Positions 9,647 through 34,873 of a stretch of DNA of 64,000 nt are shown one piece after another. The stretch lies in IMG/VR virus record IMGVR_UViG_3300027754_000037; one strand, written 5' to 3'. The notes under the pieces were generated by a model. That model ran no database searches, was not told the origin of the DNA, and was given only the letters and a program-made list of their open reading frames with translations. Every line of letters begins with the position of its first letter. Position 1 is the stretch's first letter. The DNA is from a virus (taxonomy: Duplodnaviria; Caudoviricetes). Position numbers and translations under genes: made by a program.

Positions 9647-9889
9647 AGAAGGTTTTGCGATGCTCTTTTTTGGCTGTTCTCTCCTGATGTGGAAATCGAT
9701 GAACTAAAATGGCATCGGGATAGGGAAGATCGTTGGGTTATGCCTTTGGGTGACAATAATTGGCAATATTAAGAAGATAATCAGCTTCCTAGAACAATAA
9801 AAGAAAAGATATACATAAAATAAGGAACTTGTCATAGAGTAATCAAAGGAACAACAGATTTGAAAATATTGATAGAAAAAAAAGAATAG
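9647..9889 (+). pseudogene. Decayed gene of the phage ELKWHRDREDR hypothetical family
   Basis: One frame reads FSPDVEIDELKWHRDREDRWV..NWQY*EDNQLP..IYIK*GTCHRVIKGTTDLKI; in-frame TAA at 9770 and 9821; no start codon. Confidence 0.6.
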
Positions 9890-9952
9890 TGAACATTAAA
9901 AAACTACTTCAATAATTTTTTATTGAAGTAGTTTAATAGTGCGCTGATAATA

Positions 9953-10978
9953 TCAGGAGTTGGTTCCAAAAGGCATGCTAGGTGTTTGTCCTGAGTCTGT
10001 AATAACATCACCTTGAATCCAATATGCATTTCCTAGACTAGTTGCTACTACATAACTACCTATTATTCCCCCGGTTCTATTATTTGTACCATATTCTATT
10101 TTATTATTTCCAGTAGATGCAGCAAAAGTTCTAACATCATTAGTAGCATCTTTGTGTAGAGTTAAGCTTCCGGTCATAGTATCGGTAAATGGATAACATT
10201 GGATGAAGAACTGATCGGGTCGAACAGTAGTGAGAAAGTGAAAAGTTTGTCCAATAGTAGTAGTGTTTAGTGCTGGTAGTGTAATGAATCCATTTATATT
10301 ATCTAAGACAAACAATTTGCCATTATCTGATGCAGATATTTGGTGAACGGAAAGAGACACAACGGAATCTGTATAGGAGACAATAGCAGTTGGGTTGAAA
10401 TTTCCGAGAGAAGGTAATCCAGCACTAATTGGCACCCATCCCCCACTAGATTTGAAGTAAAGAACATCTCCATTACGAGTTAAGCTTCCAGTATCGCCTT
10501 CCAATACAGGTAGTGCTCCTAAGTTTGGCAAATTCATAGTGGCATCTTTTCCGAATTTCCATTGATGTTCAGTAGTTAATCGATTTGTTCTAATATAAAT
10601 ATTGTCATTGTGATTAACATCAAGATGACGGTCATCATTGCCAATAATCAAGTCACCTTCATCTCCACTAGAGATGTGTATGTGTGGAGCATCATAAGCA
10701 CTAGTGGGATATATTCTAATATATTGTCCATATCCTATTGCTTCAGAGGTATTATTTGGAACTAAAGTAATCTCTCCGTTTGGAGAAATGCTAGTTGCGC
10801 CTTGAGGAGTGGTATTGAATCCAATTTCTCCATTTTCTCCAACAATTTTTAAGTGATTAAAAGTTATATCTCCTAATACATTTACTGCTAGATTTTGTGG
10901 TTTTATATTATTTTGAATTCTTGGAAAAATCTTTTCTACTGAACCGGGTCCCGATCCTTCGCTTGATGTAGCTCCCAT
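9953..10978 (-). CDS. Probable virion structural / fibre-like protein
   Basis: G/T/N-rich beta composition; SD AAGGAG; TATAAATA upstream. Confidence 0.5.
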   Translation of the reverse strand: MGATSSEGSGPGSVEKIFPRIQNNIKPQNLAVNVLGDITFNHLKIVGENGEIGFNTTPQGATSISPNGEITLVPNNTSEAIGYGQYIRIYPTSAYDAPHIHISSGDEGDLIIGNDDRHLDVNHNDNIYIRTNRLTTEHQWKFGKDATMNLPNLGALPVLEGDTGSLTRNGDVLYFKSSGGWVPISAGLPSLGNFNPTAIVSYTDSVVSLSVHQISASDNGKLFVLDNINGFITLPALNTTTIGQTFHFLTTVRPDQFFIQCYPFTDTMTGSLTLHKDATNDVRTFAASTGNNKIEYGTNNRTGGIIGSYVVATSLGNAYWIQGDVITDSGQTPSMPFGTNS

Positions 10979-11022
10979 GATTATCTCCTTTTGGAAGAAT
11001 ATACAAATTATATATTATTGAC

Positions 11023-11030
11023 TATTTATA
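11023..11030 (-). promoter_or_regulatory. T4-type late promoter motif TATAAATA
   Basis: Exact match upstream of 9953..10978. Confidence 0.5.
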
Positions 11031-11048
11031 TTTCAGTTTGATTTGTTT

Positions 11049-11156
11049 AGAAAATTCAAGTGTAACTGTGGGTTTGAGATTGACAGGGACTTGAATGCTG
11101 CGCTAAAATTAAGAGATACCGTAAGTTTCAAACCCGTTAGTGAGAGAAATGTCTGA
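11049..11156 (+). mobile_element. tnpB: 3' remnant of an IS200/IS605/IS607-family tnpB
   Basis: Reads RKFKCNCGFEIDRDLNAALKLRDTVS, the TnpB Zn-ribbon plus DRDxNAA motif; rest of gene absent. Confidence 0.7.
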
Positions 11157-11343
11157 TGTTGATTACCAACGGACATGACTGTGCGATATTTAGCTTAATA
11201 TACTCTGGTAGCCATAACTGGAAGAACAACTGGTGCTTATGCGATACTAGAGCAATGACATCCAGATCAGCGTTGGTCTTTTCGCATAATTGGCAAATGA
11301 ATATAAGTTGCAGCCAGAAGAACGATTCGTCTCTGTGGGGAAT

Positions 11344-11574
11344 CTAAATTCTGCCGTATTGTTGGAGAATTTTTTTCATTTCATCTTTGTTTTCTGCATT
11401 ATCAAGCAAATATTTAACATCATAAGCAGACAATTTTTTTATTTTTTCTGAACCTAATATTTTTGCCATTTCATTTTTGTCTTTTGCATAACGAAGCAAA
11501 TAATAAGCATTATTATCAGTTAATTCTTTTTTATATTGAAGAATTAAGTTTGCTATTGCATCTTTGTTTATCAT
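11344..11574 (-). CDS. Hypothetical protein with internal helical repeat
   Basis: Two copies of L..Y....LL..A..K.EM.KIL. Confidence 0.45.
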   Translation of the reverse strand: MINKDAIANLILQYKKELTDNNAYYLLRYAKDKNEMAKILGSEKIKKLSAYDVKYLLDNAENKDEMKKILQQYGRI

Positions 11575-11803
11575 CTTTTACAAAAGCAATTTTCCGCTTA
11601 TTAAATCCTTGCTCTTGATGGGTAACAACTTCCCACTCGCCATCTTCTAAGGAAAATAAAGTATTAAATTCAAAATCTGGATAAATTCTACTTTCCGCAA
11701 TTTCTTTATTGACATGATGAAATCTTATATCTACTTCATCAGGTTTTGTAATTTTTGTACAGAATGATTCGTTTTGCCAAGAATTCACATCTTCTCTTGT
11801 CAT
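11531..11803 (-). CDS. Hypothetical protein
   Basis: SD GAGG; 90 aa. Confidence 0.45.
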   Translation of the reverse strand: MTREDVNSWQNESFCTKITKPDEVDIRFHHVNKEIAESRIYPDFEFNTLFSLEDGEWEVVTHQEQGFNKRKIAFVKDDKQRCNSKLNSSI

Positions 11804-11944
11804 CGAAAATCATCCTCATAGGCACAATAAATTATGTTCCTCTTAATTATATTCTGGTTTGACGAAAAAAGCAAAGACTTTCTATTGATATTTTTTTTGG
11901 TTAAAGTTAGGGTGGTTTTTCTTGGCTCAAGGATCATGTTTAGG

Positions 11945-13270
11945 TCACAGCCTCGTCCATCCTCTCGCTCTAGCATCTTCAGGGTCTTGTTTCCCAGCCC
12001 AATAACGATAGGTGTCCACAGGCACCTGCGCTATATCCTTGACTGCACCCCTCACAACCTTTTTCGTCTTTTCAAAACCACGGGTAAAATCACCAATATT
12101 CGCAATCTGCACCCTCAAATCATTAGGGAATTTCTCCACAGCATCTGACATCCTGTCGGGCTCGGAGGTTTCAGGGCTGTTAATCAAATCGGAATAAATC
12201 CTCTTAGCTAACCGGCGTTGCTCTTTAATACCCATTTCCACAAAATTGGAAACAATATAGTTGGCCTCTTCAAAATCAACTGGACGACTACTTTTTCTTA
12301 TTTCACCATTCTTGATAGTTGACATAATAATGACAAGTTGACCTCTCGAATCTTCAAGTCCAGCATTGATTGAAATCCAAGGCGCTGAGACAAGAATGTT
12401 CCTGACTTCCGACCTAACAAGTTCGCTATAAGGCAAACTACCACCCATTACCAATATTTTTCCCGAGAAGCTTTTTATATTCTCAGTCTTCGCAACACGA
12501 ACTCTTTCCCGCTCCTCTGCCTCCTCTTGACGAATCCGAGATTCCTCTTGCCCAATCCGATTCGACTCACGCTCCGCAGCTATGCGAGCATTCTCTCGAC
12601 GCTCCCTCCTCTTGAATACACTATCATTATAATCTCTTTCTGTTTTACTAAATTTATTCATAATCAAATTCTTCTTCTCTTCCAAATCACTCAATGTCCT
12701 CCTGTCAGTCGCAAATCCAGTTCCACTATTGATCCTGTCGTAAATTCTTCCTATCGCCTTTTCCACTTTTACAAGCTCGATCTTAGCCGTCTGCATCTTG
12801 TATGCAGGCATCACATTTGCAACTAAATCCACCTCTCTCACTTTGTCCTTCGCCAAATACAAATAAGGAGAAACCATCAAAAATCCAGCACCACTAGGAG
12901 GATTAGGTCTTAAGAAACTTCTGTAGAAAAGATCGTAAGGTATTGCCATCCCCTCTTCAGCAGGACTAAATTTCAAACCATTTACCTTCTCAGTCTTAAA
13001 TAATTTCTGCACACAAGACAATAATTTGTTGTAAACGGCAGTTGAACTAGTTCCAGATGTATTGGTAGTCCTAGTACCACGAGGACCTTCAAAATATACA
13101 CTCCAAACATAGTCCACACCTTGTTCAAAACCCTTGGTCATCTTCACTTTGTATTCCTTGCCATCATGCTTGAAACTGCATAAAATCAAAGAACCTCGAA
13201 CCTCGAAATCCAAATCTTCCGCAGATAATGTCATCGCCTCCATAAATTGCAAATAATCAGCAAAATTCAT
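11945..13270 (-). CDS. Probable virion-internal protein, paralog family A
   Basis: MNFADYLQFMEA start; F.GP..T..SG.....Y domain shared with 48240, 51940, 53743; charged coiled-coil C-terminus. Confidence 0.6.
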   Translation of the reverse strand: MNFADYLQFMEAMTLSAEDLDFEVRGSLILCSFKHDGKEYKVKMTKGFEQGVDYVWSVYFEGPRGTRTTNTSGTSSTAVYNKLLSCVQKLFKTEKVNGLKFSPAEEGMAIPYDLFYRSFLRPNPPSGAGFLMVSPYLYLAKDKVREVDLVANVMPAYKMQTAKIELVKVEKAIGRIYDRINSGTGFATDRRTLSDLEEKKNLIMNKFSKTERDYNDSVFKRRERRENARIAAERESNRIGQEESRIRQEEAEERERVRVAKTENIKSFSGKILVMGGSLPYSELVRSEVRNILVSAPWISINAGLEDSRGQLVIIMSTIKNGEIRKSSRPVDFEEANYIVSNFVEMGIKEQRRLAKRIYSDLINSPETSEPDRMSDAVEKFPNDLRVQIANIGDFTRGFEKTKKVVRGAVKDIAQVPVDTYRYWAGKQDPEDARARGWTRL

Positions 13271-14858: not shown

Positions 14859-14943
14859 GGAAAAGTATCCAAGAGGACAAAGGATTTTGACCGTAAGTCA
14901 AAAGGGCTGAGACCATTCGTGAGTTCGACTCTCACCTTTTCCA
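14859..14943 (+). tRNA. tRNA-Tyr(GTA), long variable arm, atypical anticodon loop
   Basis: Acceptor GGAAAAG/CTTTTCC plus A73; T-arm GTGAG-TTCGACT-CTCAC; anticodon arm TTTGA-CCGTAAG-TCAAA. Confidence 0.75.
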
Positions 14944-21066: not shown

Positions 21067-21738
21067 ATGTCCATGAGAAATTTTAGTGAATGGCTAAGTG
21101 ATTTTTCAGAAGTAAGTGATATTAAAATATGTGAATCCAGTTTAACCCGCATGATGTCCCTTCAGAATTCCCCTTGGTGCATCATTACAGCATACCGCAA
21201 GAAGAATTCTGACGGTACAGTTAGAAACAGAGATCAGAACATCGCTGCCAACAGGGTTCTTCGTGGAAAGTTGAACAGCATGAAGATGGGAGTACATCAG
21301 TTGATTGGGCATTGGCGTGAGTGTAAGGACAGCAATATTCCATACCCTCAATGTCCTGAAGAGATGAAAGTCGATGTAATTGAGCGGTCTTACTTTGTGG
21401 CGAAACCCCCAGAAGTGGAAATTGAAGATTTTGAAACGCTTATGCTTCAACTGTGCCGTGAATTTAACCAAGATGGAGTTTTGCTGAGTGATGGGCAATC
21501 CGTCAAGCTTGCCTATCCAAGCGGTGAAAAGGATGTAATTGGCAGCAGCAATATGGCATTGAACAAGGTTGCTCAGGCTTATAGTCAGCACATCATGAAG
21601 CAGAATGTTCCATTTGTGTTTGAAGGGTTTCAACAATTTCATGGGAATGCTGCACGGCAAGGTTCTTCCAAGAGCGGGCTAACCCTTCCACCCTTGGATG
21701 AGAACTTTGTTGTCCTTGCCGCAAAACAATTAAACTAG
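21067..21738 (+). CDS. Conserved phage hypothetical protein with MRNFSEWL motif
   Basis: CIITAYR, E.SYFV, FNQDGVL motifs; SD AGGAG. Confidence 0.6.
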   Translation: MSMRNFSEWLSDFSEVSDIKICESSLTRMMSLQNSPWCIITAYRKKNSDGTVRNRDQNIAANRVLRGKLNSMKMGVHQLIGHWRECKDSNIPYPQCPEEMKVDVIERSYFVAKPPEVEIEDFETLMLQLCREFNQDGVLLSDGQSVKLAYPSGEKDVIGSSNMALNKVAQAYSQHIMKQNVPFVFEGFQQFHGNAARQGSSKSGLTLPPLDENFVVLAAKQLN

Positions 21739-22717: not shown

Positions 22718-23272
22718 ATGTCTGACTACACATCTGCCCCAGCATGTCAACTCCTCGCAACGCATTGCTGCGTTTGCGGGCGACCCCTAGTTGACGCAAT
22801 TAGCGTCAGCTTGGGTATCGGCCCTGAGTGCAGGGGCGGGGCCAATGGCGGGATCACTTCCGAGCAGCAGGAAGCTGCAAACAAAATCACCTTCCTTGCT
22901 GCAATTGCAGCGCAGGAGGGGAAGATTGAGGAGGTGCGGGGTCATGCCGATGCCTTGCGGGTGCTGGGACTCAGCGTTTTGGCAGAAAAGGTGGCCGAGA
23001 GGTTCACCAAAGCCGAAAGGCAGGCCAAAATCTCCATCGTTGAGGATGGCGATATCCTCAAGGTGGACACCCCTTTCCGCCGTGGCGATAAGGATGCCTT
23101 TATTGCGGCATGGAGGGGCATTCCCGGTCGCCGTTACAAGAACGGGGCCAACTTGATCCCCAAGTCTGAAAAGCAGGCCTTGTATGGCCTGCTCCAGCAG
23201 TTCTTCCCCGGCCAGTATGCTGTGGGGCCGAAGGGGGTTTTCCGAATTCCCAAGCCAGAAGTCGAGGCCTAA
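22718..23272 (+). CDS. DUF6011-like Zn-binding protein
   Basis: CCVCGRPLVDAISVSLGIGPEC. Confidence 0.7.
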   Translation: MSDYTSAPACQLLATHCCVCGRPLVDAISVSLGIGPECRGGANGGITSEQQEAANKITFLAAIAAQEGKIEEVRGHADALRVLGLSVLAEKVAERFTKAERQAKISIVEDGDILKVDTPFRRGDKDAFIAAWRGIPGRRYKNGANLIPKSEKQALYGLLQQFFPGQYAVGPKGVFRIPKPEVEA

Positions 23273-23973: not shown

Positions 23974-24204
23974 ATGAAAATGAAAGTTGATGCCAGCAAG
24001 GTTATTGATCTTTTGGTTGCTGCCTACAGGGAGCGACTTGAGGACGATGGCGATCTTGTTGCCGATGAGTTGGGCGAAAACTGGCCCAACGAGATCGAGC
24101 GGGTCGAATATGATCCCGCAAAAGACGAAATCAAATTCATCCCATCTGAGGAAGGACTTGAAACCCTTCCCCAATCCTTTGTTCGCCAACTCAAGGAGAT
24201 TTGA
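23974..24204 (+). CDS. Hypothetical acidic protein
   Basis: After promoter copy 8. Confidence 0.55.
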   Translation: MKMKVDASKVIDLLVAAYRERLEDDGDLVADELGENWPNEIERVEYDPAKDEIKFIPSEEGLETLPQSFVRQLKEI

Positions 24205-24205
24205 T

Positions 24206-24757
24206 ATGAAATTGCGAATTGGAAGTGCTTCCCCTTGGGGCAGAATTCACCATCTAAAGGAAGTTGCGGAGGGCATATTGAAGGCTTCAACGGCATCTCA
24301 CGGGGGGATTAAGCTTTCCTCCGGCCGGAATCGTCAAATGCCCGCAGCATTCAAGGTTGCGGGAGGGTGGTACGAGGAGGATTGCGAGGCATCGAAGGTT
24401 ATCGCAGTTTTTCATGAACACTTCGACCCAAAGGAGGTGGATTATGCGGTTGGAGGCCTCAAGAATTGGTATCCAGTTGAGTACGAACTGTGGTCCGGCA
24501 ACAAAGTTGCCTTGGAGGAATCGCTTGTTCTTCAGGAGAAACGATTCCTTGAAGTAAACTATGACAAGTTTCTTGTGTGTGCTGCTTGGGGAGACTGGCG
24601 GACGAATGTTCCCAAGGGCATGGTTGGGGTGCAGGCCCGCCTGAATAATGCGACTGGAACTGATAAGTATTTCTTGGTGCCAGCCGAAGAGTACGCCAAC
24701 AGGCAGCACCAGTTTGTGATCGACATAGATCGTCACAAAGAAATAGATTCTATCTGA
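24206..24757 (+). CDS. DUF7007-like protein
   Basis: SPWG..GI..ASTASHGG, WYEEDCE motifs; SD AAGGAG. Confidence 0.65.
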   Translation: MKLRIGSASPWGRIHHLKEVAEGILKASTASHGGIKLSSGRNRQMPAAFKVAGGWYEEDCEASKVIAVFHEHFDPKEVDYAVGGLKNWYPVEYELWSGNKVALEESLVLQEKRFLEVNYDKFLVCAAWGDWRTNVPKGMVGVQARLNNATGTDKYFLVPAEEYANRQHQFVIDIDRHKEIDSI

Positions 24758-24956
24758 AGATAGATTCTGCCAGAGATATGCCAGAGGGATGCAACAGCAT
24801 CCCTCTTTTTTTTGTCCAGAATTTAGACTGATTGTACCTACAGGCCCCCTTGCGGGAAAGTAAGGAAAATATTTTAAAAAATTCTGCAATTTAATTGTAT
24901 TTTTAAAACGGAACTTCCTGTAAAGCTTTGTCAGAAGTAATCTAAAGGAGTAACCC

Positions 24957-25763
24957 ATGCGTCAAGCATTGTTTTTGCTGGCAGATGAGATCAGCAAGGC
25001 TGTTCTCAAGCAGTCTTACAAGAACATCCCTGACCAGATCAAGGCTGGGATGTTATTGCATGAGCAGAAACCATTTTACAACAAGAATGTGGGTCTGACC
25101 CACCTTGTTGTTGTGGCTATCCTGCACCAAATTTTTCATGAAAGGGGTGTAAAGTACAAATCTAGTGAGGTGCTGGAATTACCAGCAGTCAGGAACGCCT
25201 TGCTGGTAAAACATACCTTCAAGACTGCTGAAGGTAAACTGTTTTTTGCGGGCGGGATGTCTACCTTCACCCCTGACCCCATTGATGCACTTGCTGGAAA
25301 CATATTGAATTTTTTCGTGGAGAATGGTTGCCATAACTGTGGTTATGGCACCATCAAGACCGAGGATGACTTGGTTTGTCCCGTCTGTCTTGATGGAGAA
25401 GTCCGCAAGAAAATGTTGGCAGTATATGGGTCTTCTTTTGCTGATGAATCTTGGCATATCCTGAGTGAAGCGATTGGTCCAGATTGTAGCGAGATGCTTC
25501 TGGATTTATCATCTTTCACTCACAAGTATCAAACAAGTAAGCACTTTCTGAAAGCGGTGACAGCTTTGATGTTCAAGGATGAGGATCACGATGTTGATCC
25601 TCAATCTGAGGGGCTGTTGGAAGAAGAGTTTGGCACTTTCATCAGCGCCGATCTTGAAAAGCTTCTTGACATTCCTTTCCCGATGGGGACCGCCAAGCAA
25701 ATCCTCGAGCAGGTGGACGAGTCGTACGACGATGACTTGGGTTTTAAAGGCAACGACGAATAA
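24957..25763 (+). CDS. Hypothetical protein with Zn-ribbon, first gene of the Ubl-conjugation operon
   Basis: CHNCG..CPVC; after promoter copy 9. Confidence 0.6.
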   Translation: MRQALFLLADEISKAVLKQSYKNIPDQIKAGMLLHEQKPFYNKNVGLTHLVVVAILHQIFHERGVKYKSSEVLELPAVRNALLVKHTFKTAEGKLFFAGGMSTFTPDPIDALAGNILNFFVENGCHNCGYGTIKTEDDLVCPVCLDGEVRKKMLAVYGSSFADESWHILSEAIGPDCSEMLLDLSSFTHKYQTSKHFLKAVTALMFKDEDHDVDPQSEGLLEEEFGTFISADLEKLLDIPFPMGTAKQILEQVDESYDDDLGFKGNDE

Positions 25764-25794: not shown

Positions 25795-27237
25795 ATGAGT
25801 TCAAGTGAAGTTGTTGACAAAGTCGTCAAAAGGATGCAATGGCAAGAAGATCGGCAGATGATGTCGATTCTTGATGCAATCACGGAAGGAACCGTGAGAG
25901 GTATCAGAGAAAGCCTGAAGGTTACTGTTGAGGAACAGACCGCTGGAGCGGTTCAGGCATTTGTCTCTGACACTAGTGTGCGTCTCATTGATGTGGCAAC
26001 TTCTTGGACTAACGAGCAGTCCAAGAAGTTGATTGTATTTCCTGTTGGCACACGCTATGTGCAGAGGGATGATAAGAGTACCAACATCGTCATTGAGGAA
26101 GCGCCTCGTTGCAGACGGGTCGCTTTCAATGACCGAAATGGTGATGTCAAGCATTATTATGTTTCCTTGCCATACATCCAGTATGTCATCACCTTTAGTA
26201 AACACGGGCGTGGTGAAAAGTTTCGGCAGATGAAAATCAGTTGTAGCAAGCAACCAATCGATTCATTGACATCGATTGTTTATGATCTTCCTTTGCCGAA
26301 CATGGGTTATGGAAACCGCTTTGGTGTATGTACTGGAGGCAGTTCAAGTGGCATGGAATTGCCTGAAGGGAGCGATGCTTTCACCGAGAAGTGTGAAACG
26401 CTGATCACTAGTTTTTGGAGCAGCGAGTTCAACACCGATCTCAGTTCCAATTTGGTGAGCTTCTTTCAGAAGAATTTTGGCTACGATACTCTGGAGGGGC
26501 AGCACCCTATTCAGCGTATTCACAATTGCTTCAGCAATTGGGCAGAGGTTTCCAAGCAGCACCCAATGTGGTCTTTGGGTGCTGATGTGAAATTGCCACA
26601 GGAGGCAGGGTGGCAGCTTGGTAGGCTCATCGATAGCGACTTGACCAGTCGTGGCAGCAAGGCAGCGATGACTCGCAACCTGAAACAACAGGTTACCGAG
26701 GGGTTGTTTGCCTTGTCTACTAATGCTGTCGATGCCATGCGGACTCTTTCCATCGAGGAACAGGGTCAGCTTTTGGCCAACAAGCAGAAGTTGGCTGAGT
26801 GTTATCGTAGCAATCTTCATTCCGCCTATTCGGTTCTTGAAGCCGAGACTATGGCTGGCTTTGAGGAATTCAAGTTGAAGGAGTTGGAGAAGGTTCAACA
26901 GGATCGTCGCAAGGTCGATGAGATGGTGCGAAAGATCGCTGAGGACCGTCAGAAGTTTGATTTAGAGATGCTCAAGACCAAGATTGAGCTTTCTGCTGTC
27001 CACAAATTTTTGGAGGCTGAAAAGGTCAAGGTTGCGCTAATACAGGCGCAGGCAGAGGAGATCATTGCTCGTGGTGTTGTTGCTATTGAGCCTGTAGTCA
27101 AGCGTGGTCGTGGTCGGCCTCGCAAGGAAAAGCCTCCTGTTCCTCTGGGACCGGATGGCCAACCCATCAATCGGGGTCGTGGTCGGCCCCGCAAGACCCC
27201 GATTGTTCTTCGTCACGCATCACTTATGAGGAGCTAA
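25795..27237 (+). CDS. Prokaryotic E2-like (Prok-E2 family D / PRTRC protein B-like) fused to coiled coil and two AT-hooks
   Basis: SLPYIQY, DLPLPNM..GVCTGG (candidate catalytic Cys), FWSSEFNTDL; C-terminal KRGRGRPRK and RGRGRPRK. Confidence 0.7.
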   Translation: MSSSEVVDKVVKRMQWQEDRQMMSILDAITEGTVRGIRESLKVTVEEQTAGAVQAFVSDTSVRLIDVATSWTNEQSKKLIVFPVGTRYVQRDDKSTNIVIEEAPRCRRVAFNDRNGDVKHYYVSLPYIQYVITFSKHGRGEKFRQMKISCSKQPIDSLTSIVYDLPLPNMGYGNRFGVCTGGSSSGMELPEGSDAFTEKCETLITSFWSSEFNTDLSSNLVSFFQKNFGYDTLEGQHPIQRIHNCFSNWAEVSKQHPMWSLGADVKLPQEAGWQLGRLIDSDLTSRGSKAAMTRNLKQQVTEGLFALSTNAVDAMRTLSIEEQGQLLANKQKLAECYRSNLHSAYSVLEAETMAGFEEFKLKELEKVQQDRRKVDEMVRKIAEDRQKFDLEMLKTKIELSAVHKFLEAEKVKVALIQAQAEEIIARGVVAIEPVVKRGRGRPRKEKPPVPLGPDGQPINRGRGRPRKTPIVLRHASLMRS

Positions 27238-27238
27238 G

Positions 27239-28264
27239 ATGATTAATTTTCCCGTGTTCCTGAATATTCCCGGCACCAAGCTGCCTGAAACCGGAATCTA
27301 CTATGTGGTTGCCAAGGACGGCATCTACATGAGGACAGACAGGAACTTTGGAAGTGCATTGGTCAAGGTTGAAGAAATTCCTCACCTTGCTGCTGCTCCC
27401 ACTCAAGCAAGTTTCAACCTTCCCAAGATTCCAGCAACGATCATTGGGCAGGCATTGATGTTCTTCCGTGAAGTGTTCGTTGAGTACAAAACGGAGAGCT
27501 ATTTGACCCTTCTGTATTCCAAGAAATTGGGTCAGTATCGTCTGTGGTGCCCCAAACAGGAAGTCAGCTACAGTTCTGTCAGCTATGACAGAACTGACAG
27601 CGTTCCTGTCGAGGAGCGGAATTACATGGGTAGCGATGGTCCCGGCTGGCAAAATGTGGGGACTATTCACTCCCATTGTGACTTCTCAGCTTTCCACAGC
27701 GGTACGGATGAGTTTGATGAATCCACCTTTGATGGAATTCACATCACCCTTGGCCATGTGAACCGCAATGATTTCAGCATTGTGGCTAGCATTGCCATCA
27801 ACGACAACCGCTTCCCGAAGGCGATTGCCGATGTGTGTGATGGTGTGCCCAACACTTCTTCCGAAGTTGTTGAGGAAGAGGGAGATGGTCCATTCAAAGG
27901 TCAGATATTCAAGCGTCAAGAGTTGTACCACCGTCTTGCGCTGAACGACGAGCAGCAGGCATGGTTGGAAAACGAATTGGAGATAACCATCCGAAATGAA
28001 TGGTTGCCCAAGGTCACTAGAAAGATCTCGAGACACCCCAAGGGAATTAGTCGCCTTGGACTGAGCGTGGAAGAGGTAGAGTGTGAGGAGTTCGAGTTCG
28101 ATGGACTGGAGCAGGGCTTGTTCCCTGACTCCGGTCCAAGGATCGAAGATGGAATATATGTTGATGAAGATGAGATATCATTTGATCCTACTGAACGGCA
28201 ACTCCGTAGTTTTGGATATCGTCGTGATGAACATGGTTTCAAGTATCGGCATGAAGGTGATTAG
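27239..28264 (+). CDS. JAB/JAMM metallopeptidase (PRTRC protein A-like deconjugase)
   Basis: YYVVAKDGIY, E..L, GTIHSHCDFSAFHSGTDEFDE fits the HxH-x7-S-x2-D motif. Confidence 0.85.
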   Translation: MINFPVFLNIPGTKLPETGIYYVVAKDGIYMRTDRNFGSALVKVEEIPHLAAAPTQASFNLPKIPATIIGQALMFFREVFVEYKTESYLTLLYSKKLGQYRLWCPKQEVSYSSVSYDRTDSVPVEERNYMGSDGPGWQNVGTIHSHCDFSAFHSGTDEFDESTFDGIHITLGHVNRNDFSIVASIAINDNRFPKAIADVCDGVPNTSSEVVEEEGDGPFKGQIFKRQELYHRLALNDEQQAWLENELEITIRNEWLPKVTRKISRHPKGISRLGLSVEEVECEEFEFDGLEQGLFPDSGPRIEDGIYVDEDEISFDPTERQLRSFGYRRDEHGFKYRHEGD

Positions 28265-28335
28265 TTCGGAAAATATTTTTTGAGTTAATTGTATTTTTGA
28301 AACGAAACTTCCTGTAGTCCTTTGTGGAGGTGTTA

Positions 28336-29073
28336 ATGGCAAACAACATCAAGGTGATTGGTGCTGGTGGCATAGGACTGTGCGTGTTGCCGGTCCTATG
28401 CCGGTTTTTAAACTTCGAGGACGAGACTTTTCCCGAACCTGTTCTCACCGTGGTTGACGGCGACCAGTACGAGGAGAATAATCGTGCTCGTCAAGAGTTC
28501 GAGGATTGTGGCCCCAAGTCAACCATCACGGTTGAGAGGTTGAGGGGTCAATTTCCTCGAATTGAGTTTAGAGACAAGTCCGAGTTCGTTGATGATGCGA
28601 ATGTCGGATTGATTGTCCGTGAAGGAGATGTGGTTTTACTCTGTGTGGACAACCACAAGAGTAGGAAGATCGTGAGTGATCGTGCTTGTCAGTTGCGCAA
28701 TGTCACCGTGATTAGTGGTGGTAATGACCGGACTGACGGCAATGTGCTCATCCACATTCGTCGTGGCGGGGTTGACTTGACCCCGCCATTGGCGAGTCAC
28801 TACCATCCCGAGATCAGTAATCCTACTGATCTCCATCCTCATGAGCACAATCAGCCGGGGAGTTGTTCCCGGCTTGCTGAGGAAGTTCCTCAGTTGGTGA
28901 TCATGAATAATCTAATCGCTGCAAAAATGCTTGCAGCTTTTTACACTCTCACCGATCCCGTGTTATATTCGGAACAGGTGGAAAAAAAACCGCATCGATA
29001 TGCGGAGGTGCTGTGTGATCTCAGCACTTTGACTAGTGTAGTTCGTGACCGGCATGTAAAAAGAGGAGCATGA
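28336..29073 (+). CDS. ThiF/E1-like adenylating enzyme
   Basis: VIGAGGIG, VDGDQYEENNRARQ, LLCVDNHKSR, SGGN, GSC..VPQL..N. Confidence 0.9.
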   Translation: MANNIKVIGAGGIGLCVLPVLCRFLNFEDETFPEPVLTVVDGDQYEENNRARQEFEDCGPKSTITVERLRGQFPRIEFRDKSEFVDDANVGLIVREGDVVLLCVDNHKSRKIVSDRACQLRNVTVISGGNDRTDGNVLIHIRRGGVDLTPPLASHYHPEISNPTDLHPHEHNQPGSCSRLAEEVPQLVIMNNLIAAKMLAAFYTLTDPVLYSEQVEKKPHRYAEVLCDLSTLTSVVRDRHVKRGA

Positions 29074-29381
29074 AAATGAGCGACCAAAATCAGAACCCCA
29101 CCAATGGTTTTGCCAACAGCCCTGATGCCCAGAGTGTCGATGTTCTAGGTGTGTTGAGCGGGTTACAGGCAAGCAACTGCAAGGTTGTTCACGGTGCTGC
29201 CGAGGGCATCCACCCAGTTGCCCTAAATAGCGTGAGTGCTGTTCGTGGGACATTTTCGGTGGCATACAACATCCCCGCTGACGCTTTGTCCTTTGTGGAT
29301 GGAGTTTCGGTTGCGGAAGATTACATCCTCCAGCCTAACGAAACGCTGGAGTTCATCAAGCAGGCGGGCGTGAAGGGTTAA
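29070..29381 (+). CDS. Ubiquitin-like (beta-grasp) protein ending AGVKG
   Basis: VDG..V..DYILQPNETLEFIKQAGVKG; overlaps the E1 stop; terminator follows at about 29404-29442. Confidence 0.75.
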   Translation: MKMSDQNQNPTNGFANSPDAQSVDVLGVLSGLQASNCKVVHGAAEGIHPVALNSVSAVRGTFSVAYNIPADALSFVDGVSVAEDYILQPNETLEFIKQAGVKG

Positions 29382-29559
29382 TCGCCCTTCGCCCGTTCTC
29401 TCTGCCCCCGCAAGGCCCACAAAGCCTTGCGGGGGTTTTTTATGTCGGGACCAAACTGCAAGCCTCAGAAAAATTCTAGAAAAAAATTGAATTTAATTGT
29501 ATTTTTGAAACAGAACTTCCTTATCACTTTGTATAGAGTTAAACAAAAGGAGGTGAGCC

Positions 29560-29898: not shown

Positions 29899-29931
29899 AT
29901 ACCGATGTACGCTAAACAAGGGAGCAACACC

Positions 29932-30483
29932 ATGACCATTGCATTCAACTCTTTCGTGCGTCGTCAGACGGCAGAATCTCCTTTCTCTCACTTCTCTCGT
30001 TGGACTTTGTCCGATGAGAAGGTTTTAGAAATGGTCCAAGCCAACTTGGAAAAGGCCAAGAAGGGCTACAGGGACGGGGTGATTTTGGTCCCTGTGGCCC
30101 CTGAAGGGTTCTTCTCCAGCGTCATCCAGCTTCAAGCTGGTGACAAGCTGCATGGCGAGTTCAAAGCCCGCCGTGATGGGGAAGAGCCCCGCAAAACTCT
30201 CCACGCCAATGGGCAGAAGATCGCTGCCCAGAGTGTGGATGTTGTCCTCTACAGCAAAGAGGTGCTGGCTGAGGGCAAGGAAAACAGCACGGATGCTGAT
30301 TGGGAAATAGTCAGCTTCAATGCTAGTCCAGAAGTTGGTGAGATGCCGATCCAACCTGACACATTAATCGCTAACCACTTCCAGTTAAGTGGTGGAACGG
30401 CGACGAACATGAGTGACTCCGAATTCGTGGAGGCTCTCAAACAGTCTGTCCTGTATTGGAAGGACAAGGCTTTGGTTGGTTGA
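29932..30483 (+). CDS. DUF3228-like protein
   Basis: GYRDGVILVP, VDVVLYS.EVL, DADWEIVS, P..P.T...N...GG. Confidence 0.7.
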   Translation: MTIAFNSFVRRQTAESPFSHFSRWTLSDEKVLEMVQANLEKAKKGYRDGVILVPVAPEGFFSSVIQLQAGDKLHGEFKARRDGEEPRKTLHANGQKIAAQSVDVVLYSKEVLAEGKENSTDADWEIVSFNASPEVGEMPIQPDTLIANHFQLSGGTATNMSDSEFVEALKQSVLYWKDKALVG

Positions 30484-31166: not shown

Positions 31167-31288
31167 ACCAAAAGTCAAAAAACTTTTGCGTGTAATTGTA
31201 TTTAAGTCACAAAACTTCCGATTAGACATTAGGCAACCTGCACTTTGCAAGTTGCCTAATGTCTAATTTTAATCTTAAGGAGTTTCTC

Positions 31289-31747
31289 ATGAATTGGATC
31301 AATGATGTTTTTTCCGTTCTAAGCGCACGAAATGCACCTATCAATAAGAAAGTCAAAAAGCCCGTGCCGACCAACAGTATCCTGACTCTGTATCCTTACA
31401 AGTCTTATGGCACTTGGGTGTTTGATGACGCTGCTACAGGACTTGTCCGAGAAGCTTTTGTTCAAGGCATCCCAGAAATTCTAGAGAAAGCTCTTGAAGA
31501 TGCTGGCATACCTCTAGACGAGGCAGAAGATGGTTGCAGCCTAGTGTTCAGCAAAAATAAGTTCCCAGATGCTACTGTCGTGCTTACACGCCTTGAAGGT
31601 GACAAGTTTAACAAGAGCTATGAGGGTAACTGGTACGAATCTCAAGATGGACTGAAGGGGTGGTTGTGCCCCGCTCTGTTCTGTTACTTCCAAGAGGCCC
31701 CTGAGAAAATCTACTGCAAAGTAGGTTGCAAGCCCAAGAAAAAGTAA
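31289..31747 (+). CDS. DUF6717-like protein
   Basis: PYKSYGTWVFDD..GL.REAFV.G, GNWY, GWLCPAL..YF..P..IY. Confidence 0.75.
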   Translation: MNWINDVFSVLSARNAPINKKVKKPVPTNSILTLYPYKSYGTWVFDDAATGLVREAFVQGIPEILEKALEDAGIPLDEAEDGCSLVFSKNKFPDATVVLTRLEGDKFNKSYEGNWYESQDGLKGWLCPALFCYFQEAPEKIYCKVGCKPKKK

Positions 31748-34801: not shown

Positions 34802-34873
34802 AGCGGGTGAAGAGATTTGAACTCTCAACATTCTGCGTGGAAGGCAGACGCTCTACCGTTGAGCTACACCCGC
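34802..34873 (-). tRNA. tRNA-Gly(TCC)
   Basis: Acceptor GCGGGTG/CACCCGC plus U73; D-arm GCTC/GAGC; anticodon arm TCTGC-CTTCCAC-GCAGA; T-loop TTCAAAT; no encoded CCA. Confidence 0.9.

Follow-up and report, generated by a model that had tools for sequence, protein, structure and literature searches.

Every characterised bacterial system of the E1, E2, ubiquitin-like protein (Ubl) and JAB type, namely Bil and type II CBASS, is anti-phage (PMC11601596, PMC10557695), and the remaining prokaryotic Ubl operon families are also predicted to be antiviral (PMC10557695). The class designated 6d by Iyer, Burroughs and Aravind combines a Ubl, a JAB-N/JAB protein, an E1, a Prok-E2_D protein and an alpha-helical protein, and constitutes the PRTRC core (TIGR03735-03738). 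Here we analysed a 64,000-nt window of the 144,066-bp IMG/VR virus record IMGVR_UViG_3300027754_000037, in which an earlier inspection of the letters alone (the sequence-only reading) had proposed a complete phage-borne E2-JAB-E1-Ubl system. Our results suggest that this four-gene cassette is probably a self-contained Ubl conjugation and deconjugation module of a large freshwater phage, and they support the earlier interpretation as far as computation reaches.

The four neighbouring, co-oriented open reading frames (ORFs) named by the sequence-only reading were all present, adjacent and on the + strand. They encode, in order, an E2-like protein of 480 aa with a Prok-E2_D/PRTRC_B-like domain (P0001; 25795-27237), a JAB/JAMM metallopeptidase of 341 aa (P0002; 27239-28264), an E1 of 245 aa with a single ThiF/MoeB-type adenylation domain (P0003; 28336-29073), and a beta-grasp Ubl of 101 aa with a C-terminal glycine (P0004; 29076-29381). 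The intergenic gaps were 1-60 nt, and a ribosome-binding site (RBS) stood in front of every gene. The genes stood as they had been called, but two of the starts did not. The E1 ORF is open from GTG 28324 and the Ubl ORF from 29070, the positions used before, whereas RBS position and homologue N-termini make ATG 28336 (RBS GGAGG) and ATG 29076 (RBS GAGGAG) the most likely starts.

The E1 translation contains the motifs IGAGGIG, VDGD, NRARQ, CVDNH and GSC, which include those on which its ThiF/E1 assignment had been based (GAGGIG, DGD, CVDN and a cysteine in GSC). The protein matched ThiF (3.8e-16) and PRTRC_ThiF (2.8e-13), and no rhodanese, UFD or separate CYS domain was found in it. Across 49 homologues the nucleotide-binding and Mg motifs were invariant, and Cys181, which lies past the adenylation core (codon 28864-28866, residues counted from 28324), was at least 90% conserved. 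We take this cysteine to be the equivalent of ThiF Cys184 and MoeB Cys187. A PDB search with the 49-sequence profile returned MoeB (2.4e-13), Uba4, ThiF, UBA5 and the SUMO, NEDD8 and ubiquitin E1s.

The last gene product had been described as a beta-grasp protein ending in AGVKG, and both its fold and its end were confirmed. The AlphaFold2 model showed a beta-grasp fold with a predicted local distance difference test score (pLDDT) above 90 over residues 35-100, preceded by a low-confidence N-terminus of about 30 aa. The best Foldseek matches in the PDB were SUMO1, Smt3, NEDD8, MoaD and Caldiarchaeum ubiquitin. The chain ends in LEFIKQAGVKG, and the codon of its final glycine (29376-29378) immediately precedes the stop. 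No Pfam or NCBIfam model matched the Ubl, and a PDB sequence search with its profile found no related solved chain. An exhaustive phmmer search retrieved 216 relatives, 40 of which share an alignable stretch of about 70 aa that ends in LEFxKxAG(V/T)KG; among these 40 sequences Gly103 (numbered from 29070) was nearly invariant (≥90%). The GxKG glycine was the last residue in 82 of 140 Ubl homologues, and most of the others carried tails of 1-8 aa. As read from these alignments, the pattern fits a carrier whose C-terminus would be the site of activation and whose tail, if present, would be trimmed by the linked peptidase. The Ubl domain also occurs in other settings: N-terminally fused to a Dam-type DNA methyltransferase on a phage-like contig (L019:7001-8050, P0027), and as 3-4 tandem, polyUbl-like copies in other proteins (P0021, P0025).

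The JAB protein carries an intact JAMM motif (H144-S-H146-x7-S154-x2-D157; 27668-27709) with E86 upstream, in agreement with the HSH-x7-S-x2-D signature first noticed in the window. It consists of an N-terminal PRTRC_A-like (JAB-N) region, the peptidase domain and an acidic C-terminal tail, and matched Prok-JAB (5.5e-4) as well as PRTRC_A (1e-8, across residues 15-190). Among 117 sequences, E86, H144, H146 and S154 were invariant and D157 was 99% conserved. The JAB-N arginine and tryptophan listed by Iyer were less than 90% conserved here, Arg101 being kept only in a 5-sequence alignment. One long JAB homologue showed a weak Prok-RING_1 match (E 0.003), on which no claim rests.

In the E2-like protein, N-terminal helices are followed by the Prok-E2_D/PRTRC_B-like domain (about residues 65-265), a coiled-coil-like helical region and two AT-hooks, KRGRGRPRK (27100-27126) and RGRGRPRK (27172-27195). 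The LPLPN..GVC signature that had prompted the E2 assignment was present as LPLPN-x8-VC(179)TG, with the Cys179 codon at 26329-26331. Taken singly, the sequence gave a marginal match to Prok-E2_D (PF14460; E 0.016). The match was clear among 58 diverse homologues, with identity down to 14%: 39 of them matched Prok-E2_D (best 1.2e-7), 14 matched PRTRC_B (TIGR03737), and no further family recurred. Cys179 was invariant (58/58), with Asn169 kept in 56 and Gly181 in 55. The family motif [PN]-L-x-N-I-x(4-8)-[VI]-C-x-G resembles the HPN...C loop of E2 enzymes. The AlphaFold2 model (pLDDT 60) runs through helices, a beta-meander, a Cys-bearing loop and further helices, an order that fits the UBC fold. 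Weak structural matches of this model included CdnG-E2, BubB (Z 3.6), a Plasmodium E2, FANCL, and RWD and UEV entries, and the matching AFDB clusters included "PRTRC system protein B" and a UBC core protein (E 7e-3). A PDB sequence search with the E2 profile found no related solved chain. Overall, we take the E2 fold to be probable, with no fold claim resting on the AlphaFold2 model.

The C-terminal part of the E2-like protein is variable. Homologue lengths ranged from 220 to 884 aa, the E2 domain usually lying at the N-terminal end of an approximately 850-aa protein, and the C-terminus differed between lineages. No Pfam family matched in the C-terminal halves of about 550 aa of the long homologues. 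The AT-hooks were kept within close relatives of the studied phage. At the other end of the protein, an ESM Atlas cluster contains alpha-hel2 fused to Prok-E2_D in bacteria, so the helical N-terminus of P0001 could be the counterpart of alpha-hel2. In another phage lineage, two paralogous E2-like genes of 370 and 305 aa, with the cysteine in both, stand side by side (L017:2775-5296, L020:6392-8918), and a small sigma-70 region-4/helix-turn-helix protein is encoded ahead of the pair.

The same components could serve a sulfur-carrier or acyl-adenylate pathway. E1 would then adenylate the Ubl C-terminus so that a thiocarboxylate forms, or so that the Ubl is ligated to a small molecule or to a base of a nucleic acid. 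The conserved cysteine of the "E2" would relay persulfide or acyl groups, and the task of JAB would be limited to carrier maturation, as in the case of Mec+ and CysO. Such a pathway would be consistent with the nearest solved E1 relatives, with weak matches to ThiS and TGS among some Ubl homologues, and with one clade in which 47 loci carry a radical SAM gene upstream of their cassette (e.g. L028:19-1077). JAB, E1 and ThiS-like sulfur-transfer operons are also known (PMC1779556), and the ThiS-ThiF, MoaD-MoeB and CysO-MoeZ-Mec systems share with the phage cassette a MoeB/ThiF-like E1 and a beta-grasp carrier with a glycine end, CysO having a JAB partner as well. Unlike these systems, however, the phage unit is free of sulfurtransferase and biosynthesis genes: neither a rhodanese nor a cysteine desulfurase nor a gene for cofactor or cysteine biosynthesis was found in the unit or among its neighbours. 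The E2-fold protein with its catalytic-type cysteine is always there, strictly linked to the other three genes in about 130 loci, and it bears long, variable C-terminal extensions of the sort that a targeting module would have. Furthermore, SUMO-type folds give the best matches to the Ubl, whose N-terminus is long and of low model confidence. We therefore regard both the sulfur or acyl pathway and the corresponding roles for the cysteine and the peptidase as quite unlikely.

Among described systems, the 6d/PRTRC class shares the most with the cassette in gene content. The four protein types are the same, with PRTRC_A, PRTRC_ThiF, Prok-E2_D and PRTRC_B as best hidden Markov model (HMM) matches. 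Both have a ThiF-type E1 lacking a rhodanese, a Ubl with a C-terminal glycine, and a JAB with an intact JAMM motif and a JAB-N region. The order B-A-ThiF of PRTRC is kept in the phage, both systems occur on mobile DNA, and the phage Ubl ends in G-x-K-G where PRTRC_C ends in AGAKG. When the seven PRTRC proteins of a Cupriavidus plasmid were compared with the phage profiles, the best match of each profile was its positional counterpart. In pairwise BLAST, no significant match to Cupriavidus PRTRC B, C or A was obtained, the relationship being visible by profiles only.

The cassette also differs from PRTRC. The canonical order on the Cupriavidus plasmid is ParB-E-C-F-B-A-ThiF, with the Ubl gene ahead of E2, whereas the phage Ubl gene follows E1. 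Scores fell about 3-fold below the NCBIfam cut-offs (PRTRC_A, 35 bits vs 101.8; PRTRC_ThiF, 49.8 vs 144.75), the single E2 and Ubl sequences matched neither PRTRC_B nor PRTRC_C, and the Ubl matched no Pfam model either. A tblastn search with Cupriavidus PRTRC E and F (E ≤1) did not find these genes and gave one chance-level hit. The sequence-only reading had noted that a ParB partner was lacking, and ParB_N and PRTRC_parB (TIGR03734) matched nothing in the window or across the 144-kb record, which is about 33% complete, so that a ParB may lie elsewhere in the genome. In the flanks sampled around related loci, no gene was recognised as a ParB, and no ParB-specific search was made there. Unlike 6d/PRTRC, the cassette is phage-borne, and its E2 has a long variable C-terminal extension, here with AT-hooks, and lacks the histidine after the cysteine, a residue absolutely conserved in 6d E2s (Iyer, PMC1779556). 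Taken together, the sub-threshold scores, the failure to find ParB, E and F and the missing histidine indicate that this phage-borne, ParB-less cassette is a diverged relative of the 6d/PRTRC core rather than a standard PRTRC cassette.

This kinship raises the question of whether the cassette is a PRTRC-type maintenance or establishment module acquired from plasmids or integrative and conjugative elements, serving partition or entry of an extrachromosomal prophage instead of takeover. The profile homology to PRTRC A, B and ThiF and the shared gene order are in keeping with this, as are related cassettes on Vibrio pAM7, Butyrivibrio pNP144 and a Cupriavidus plasmid and the DUF neighbours described below, whose function is unknown; the AT-hooks might anchor the system to DNA in place of the missing ParB. 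Against it stand the lack of ParB, PRTRC_E and PRTRC_F in the record, scores far under the PRTRC cut-offs, and conservation of the cassette in virulent-looking huge phages. It also predicts little, because the function of PRTRC itself is unknown. We consider a maintenance role very unlikely.

The record as a whole is that of a phage. Among its genes are those for a large terminase, a baseplate wedge protein and very large proteins of the tail region, together with two tRNA genes, and most of its ORFs lack a PHROG family; CheckV puts its completeness at about 33%. Within the window, 24.8-29.45 kb forms one compact + strand unit between the region's two strongest terminator-like hairpins. The 5' edge is an intrinsic-terminator-like hairpin with a T-run on the + strand (24783-24806; 10 pairs, 6 GC, T8 tail) that ends the DUF7007 gene, and the 3' end is a strong hairpin with a T-run, also on the + strand (29404-29441; 13 pairs, 10 GC). 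The sequence-only reading had placed the cassette under a repeated promoter of the phage itself, and a 27-nt promoter-like motif (TAATTGTATTTTTGAAACGGAACTTCC and close variants) indeed occurred 21 times in the window, with 0 copies expected by chance. One copy, TAATTGTATTTTTAAAACGGAACTTCC, lies at 24892-24918 (+) upstream of orf268, and a second at 28286-28312 (+) between the JAB and E1 genes. The 21 copies span 26 kb (window 16671-42540); one more, at genome position 114442, brings the record to 22. The motif was always on the + strand, and the inspected copies stood just upstream of genes. Since it bears no resemblance to sigma-70 promoters, its recognition may depend on a polymerase or sigma factor encoded by the phage. 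Its distribution appears to mark a 26-kb co-regulated block, possibly an early one, and the position of the cassette in that block places it among genes sharing the phage's own motif. Metagenome assemblies break at these repeats, leaving loose ends at 28285/28324 and 29488.

Given the terminase and baseplate genes, the promoter block and the sub-threshold PRTRC scores, a bacterial island with a standard PRTRC cassette was ruled out. Tail-assembly Ubl/JAB proteins of the lambda type (TAPI/TAPK) were likewise ruled out, since the unit lies far from the tail module and has an E1 and an E2.

The cassette recurs in other phages. More than 10 studies (2017-2025) contributed freshwater or lake metagenomes in which DNA of the studied phage was found, and close copies of all four genes stand side by side on metagenome contigs L008, L009 and L013. 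In one lake metatranscriptome, two identical short contigs covered the E2 start and E1; this is a hint of transcription and no proof, because DNA carry-over is possible. Scanning IMG/VR with the E1 alignment identified 127 viral contigs, among them contigs of 340, 459, 527 and 572 kb, whereas a scan with the single JAB sequence gave no match, as did a nucleotide search of GenBank phages with the cassette. From the 80 best IMG/VR matches and L008, L013, L017 and L020 we assembled 84 metagenomic loci and searched them with HMMs from our own alignments. The full E2-JAB-E1-Ubl order was found in at least 67 of the 84, and JAB-E1-Ubl in another 14. A large terminase gene was present in all five other carrier records tested; two carriers (527 and 572 kb) were rated 100% complete, and one had terminal repeats. 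Among cultured phages, the Bacillus phage vB_BceM_WH1 group encodes a distant E2-JAB-E1 set in identical order (gp214-216 in vB_BceM_WH1 itself), and Salmonella phage Arash a distant JAB-E1 pair (gp247, gp246). Arash gp246 and gp248 are labelled "structural protein" in GenBank; the Arash paper applied this label to proteins that mass spectrometry had detected in phage particles (PMC10585845).

The surroundings of the cassette differ between clades. A classic AAA+ ATPase gene (PF00004 with lid_3) directly follows the Ubl gene in 35 loci of one clade (e.g. L091:7177-8781), and in another, about 60 loci carry second ThiF-family and RNA polymerase beta'-like genes downstream (L025:7924-8799, 9648-12356). 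Two tandem E2-JAB-E1 sets were present on one contig of a Parcubacteria bin (L126:137-5871).

Relatives were also found outside viral records. In a species-representative genome set, all 90 matches fell in metagenome-assembled genomes (MAGs) of Patescibacteria, Planctomycetota, Victivallales, Gammaproteobacteria and others. The full four-gene set was present in 64 of 80 MAG loci, either in the phage order or as Ubl-E2-JAB-E1, and a 5.6-Mb Victivallales contig carried two copies. Together with the IMG/VR provirus class of the record and the anti-phage activity of the characterised bacterial systems, this distribution leaves room for a Bil-like defence or exclusion system of a phage or prophage, which would tag proteins of competing phages or invading DNA rather than the host and thereby shield the infected or lysogenic cell. 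The cassette does resemble BilABCD in having separate Ubl, E2, JAB and E1 genes with the same expected chemistry. No E3 is found in either, so that the E2 presumably picks the targets in both. However, BilD is a multidomain E1 with inactive and active adenylation domains and a CYS domain, whereas the phage E1 consists of one ThiF domain of 245 aa, and Bil is host-encoded and acts against phages. E1, JAB and Ubl matched no PADLOC defence model in the 2023 library, which may lack Bil models, and no sequence-level match to Bil emerged from PADLOC or PDB searches. Of the systems that the sequence-only reading had named, PRTRC is a diverged relative by profiles, while Bil shares with the cassette the mechanism and not the family. 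A defence system would also fit poorly with the cassette's place in the + strand phage-motif block, beside an S-AdoMet lyase homologue, and with its conservation in complete 527-572-kb phages with terminal repeats. We consider this explanation unlikely.

Two further bacterial systems bear comparison. Type II CBASS Cap2/Cap3 likewise places E1, E2 and JAB chemistry on mobile DNA in phage-host conflict, but in Cap2 the E2 and E1 are fused and the conjugated protein is a CD-NTase, there is no free Ubl, and no HMM match to the phage cassette was obtained. Bub ('6E'/DUF6527), too, is a diverged Ubl pathway of bacteria that is carried by mobile elements; unlike the cassette, it comprises fused Ubl-E2-like and peptidase-E1 proteins with another peptidase class, BubB being one of the weak structural matches of the E2 model.

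A conjugation and deconjugation module of the phage could work as follows. E1 would bind ATP and adenylate the free C-terminal Gly103 of the Ubl, which is made already Gly-ended. The Ubl would then be relayed as a thioester, probably via E1 Cys181, to Cys179 of the E2-like protein, which may move it to target lysines through isopeptide bonds, with no evident E3 and with its variable C-terminal half selecting the targets. In this lineage the AT-hooks would hold the E2 on AT-rich DNA, and the targets would therefore be DNA-bound host or phage proteins. JAB would remove the tag and, in relatives whose Ubl carries a tail after the glycine, would also mature the Ubl. The phage might benefit, for example, through host takeover or counter-defence, two of the possible roles that the sequence-only reading had put forward along with inter-phage conflict.

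Several observations weigh against this proposal. Neither an E3 nor a target could be identified. The E2-like protein has neither the canonical HPN histidine nor the conserved histidine of 6d E2s, with no column among the 80 alignment positions past Cys179 showing histidine in ≥30% of the 58 sequences. The model of its N-terminal 300 aa was of low confidence (pLDDT 60), and structural matches to E2 and RWD folds were weak (Z ≤4.4 in a VIA-align wide search). The closest solved E1 relatives, MoeB, Uba4 and ThiF, are sulfur-carrier activators. AT-hooks were present in just 4 of 150 E2 homologues, so that DNA tethering would be lineage-specific at most. The 6d/PRTRC class is uncharacterised biochemically, with no function assigned in the searchable literature. 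Finally, IMG/VR classed the record as a provirus, so that the cassette might serve a lysogen. A complex prediction of E1 and Ubl (30-103) with the E2 domain (60-270) as partner scored 0.02, which weighs neither way on binding.

Immediately upstream of the cassette and within the same unit, orf268 (24957-25763, +) is separated from the E2 gene by 31 nt with an RBS, and neither the promoter motif nor a strong terminator was seen in that gap. It is present in L013, the closest relative, and absent from L008. No family or fold match to orf268 was found in Pfam, PHROGs, PADLOC or the ESM Atlas; its CHNC-x12-CPVC motif could form a zinc ribbon. About 4 kb upstream of the cassette, and within the motif block, lies the gene for an S-adenosylmethionine lyase family protein of the anti-restriction type (PF23780, 5e-7; 21067-21738). 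Genes for DUF6011 (22718-23272) and DUF7007 (23987-24757; 7.9e-33) proteins flank the cassette on one side, and those for DUF3228 (29905-30483) and DUF6717 (31259-31747) proteins on the other; downstream of the cassette, L008 carries DUF1281_C and DUF6915 in place of the flanking DUFs of the studied phage. The tRNA genes are tRNA-Tyr (GTA; 14859-14943, +) and tRNA-Gly (TCC; 34802-34873, -).

Comparative genomics had already revealed this kind of system, and its occurrence as a conserved, widespread cassette of large phages appears to be undescribed. We found no paper describing a phage-encoded E1-E2-Ubl-JAB set in a literature search that covered subscription journals poorly, and a 2021 comparative survey of jumbo phages makes no mention of such a set. 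More broadly, and more tentatively than for the module itself, we propose that large and huge phages widely encode an E1-E2-Ubl-isopeptidase cascade that would tag host or phage proteins for their own benefit, in takeover or counter-defence, with targets set by the E2 C-terminus and, here, directed by AT-hooks towards DNA-bound proteins. The question is testable, as cultured phages (the vB_BceM_WH1 group and Arash) carry distant versions, and with four small proteins and a Ubl that needs no processing, reconstitution in vitro should be straightforward. These findings place a full E1-E2-Ubl-JAB cascade on the side of the virus, against the current view of such systems as host defences, and link the phage cassettes to the 6d/PRTRC class, which has been without a function since 2006. 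If phages do use such tagging for their own benefit, the cassette would be a viral mirror image of Bil and CBASS and would provide the first function for the 6d/PRTRC class.

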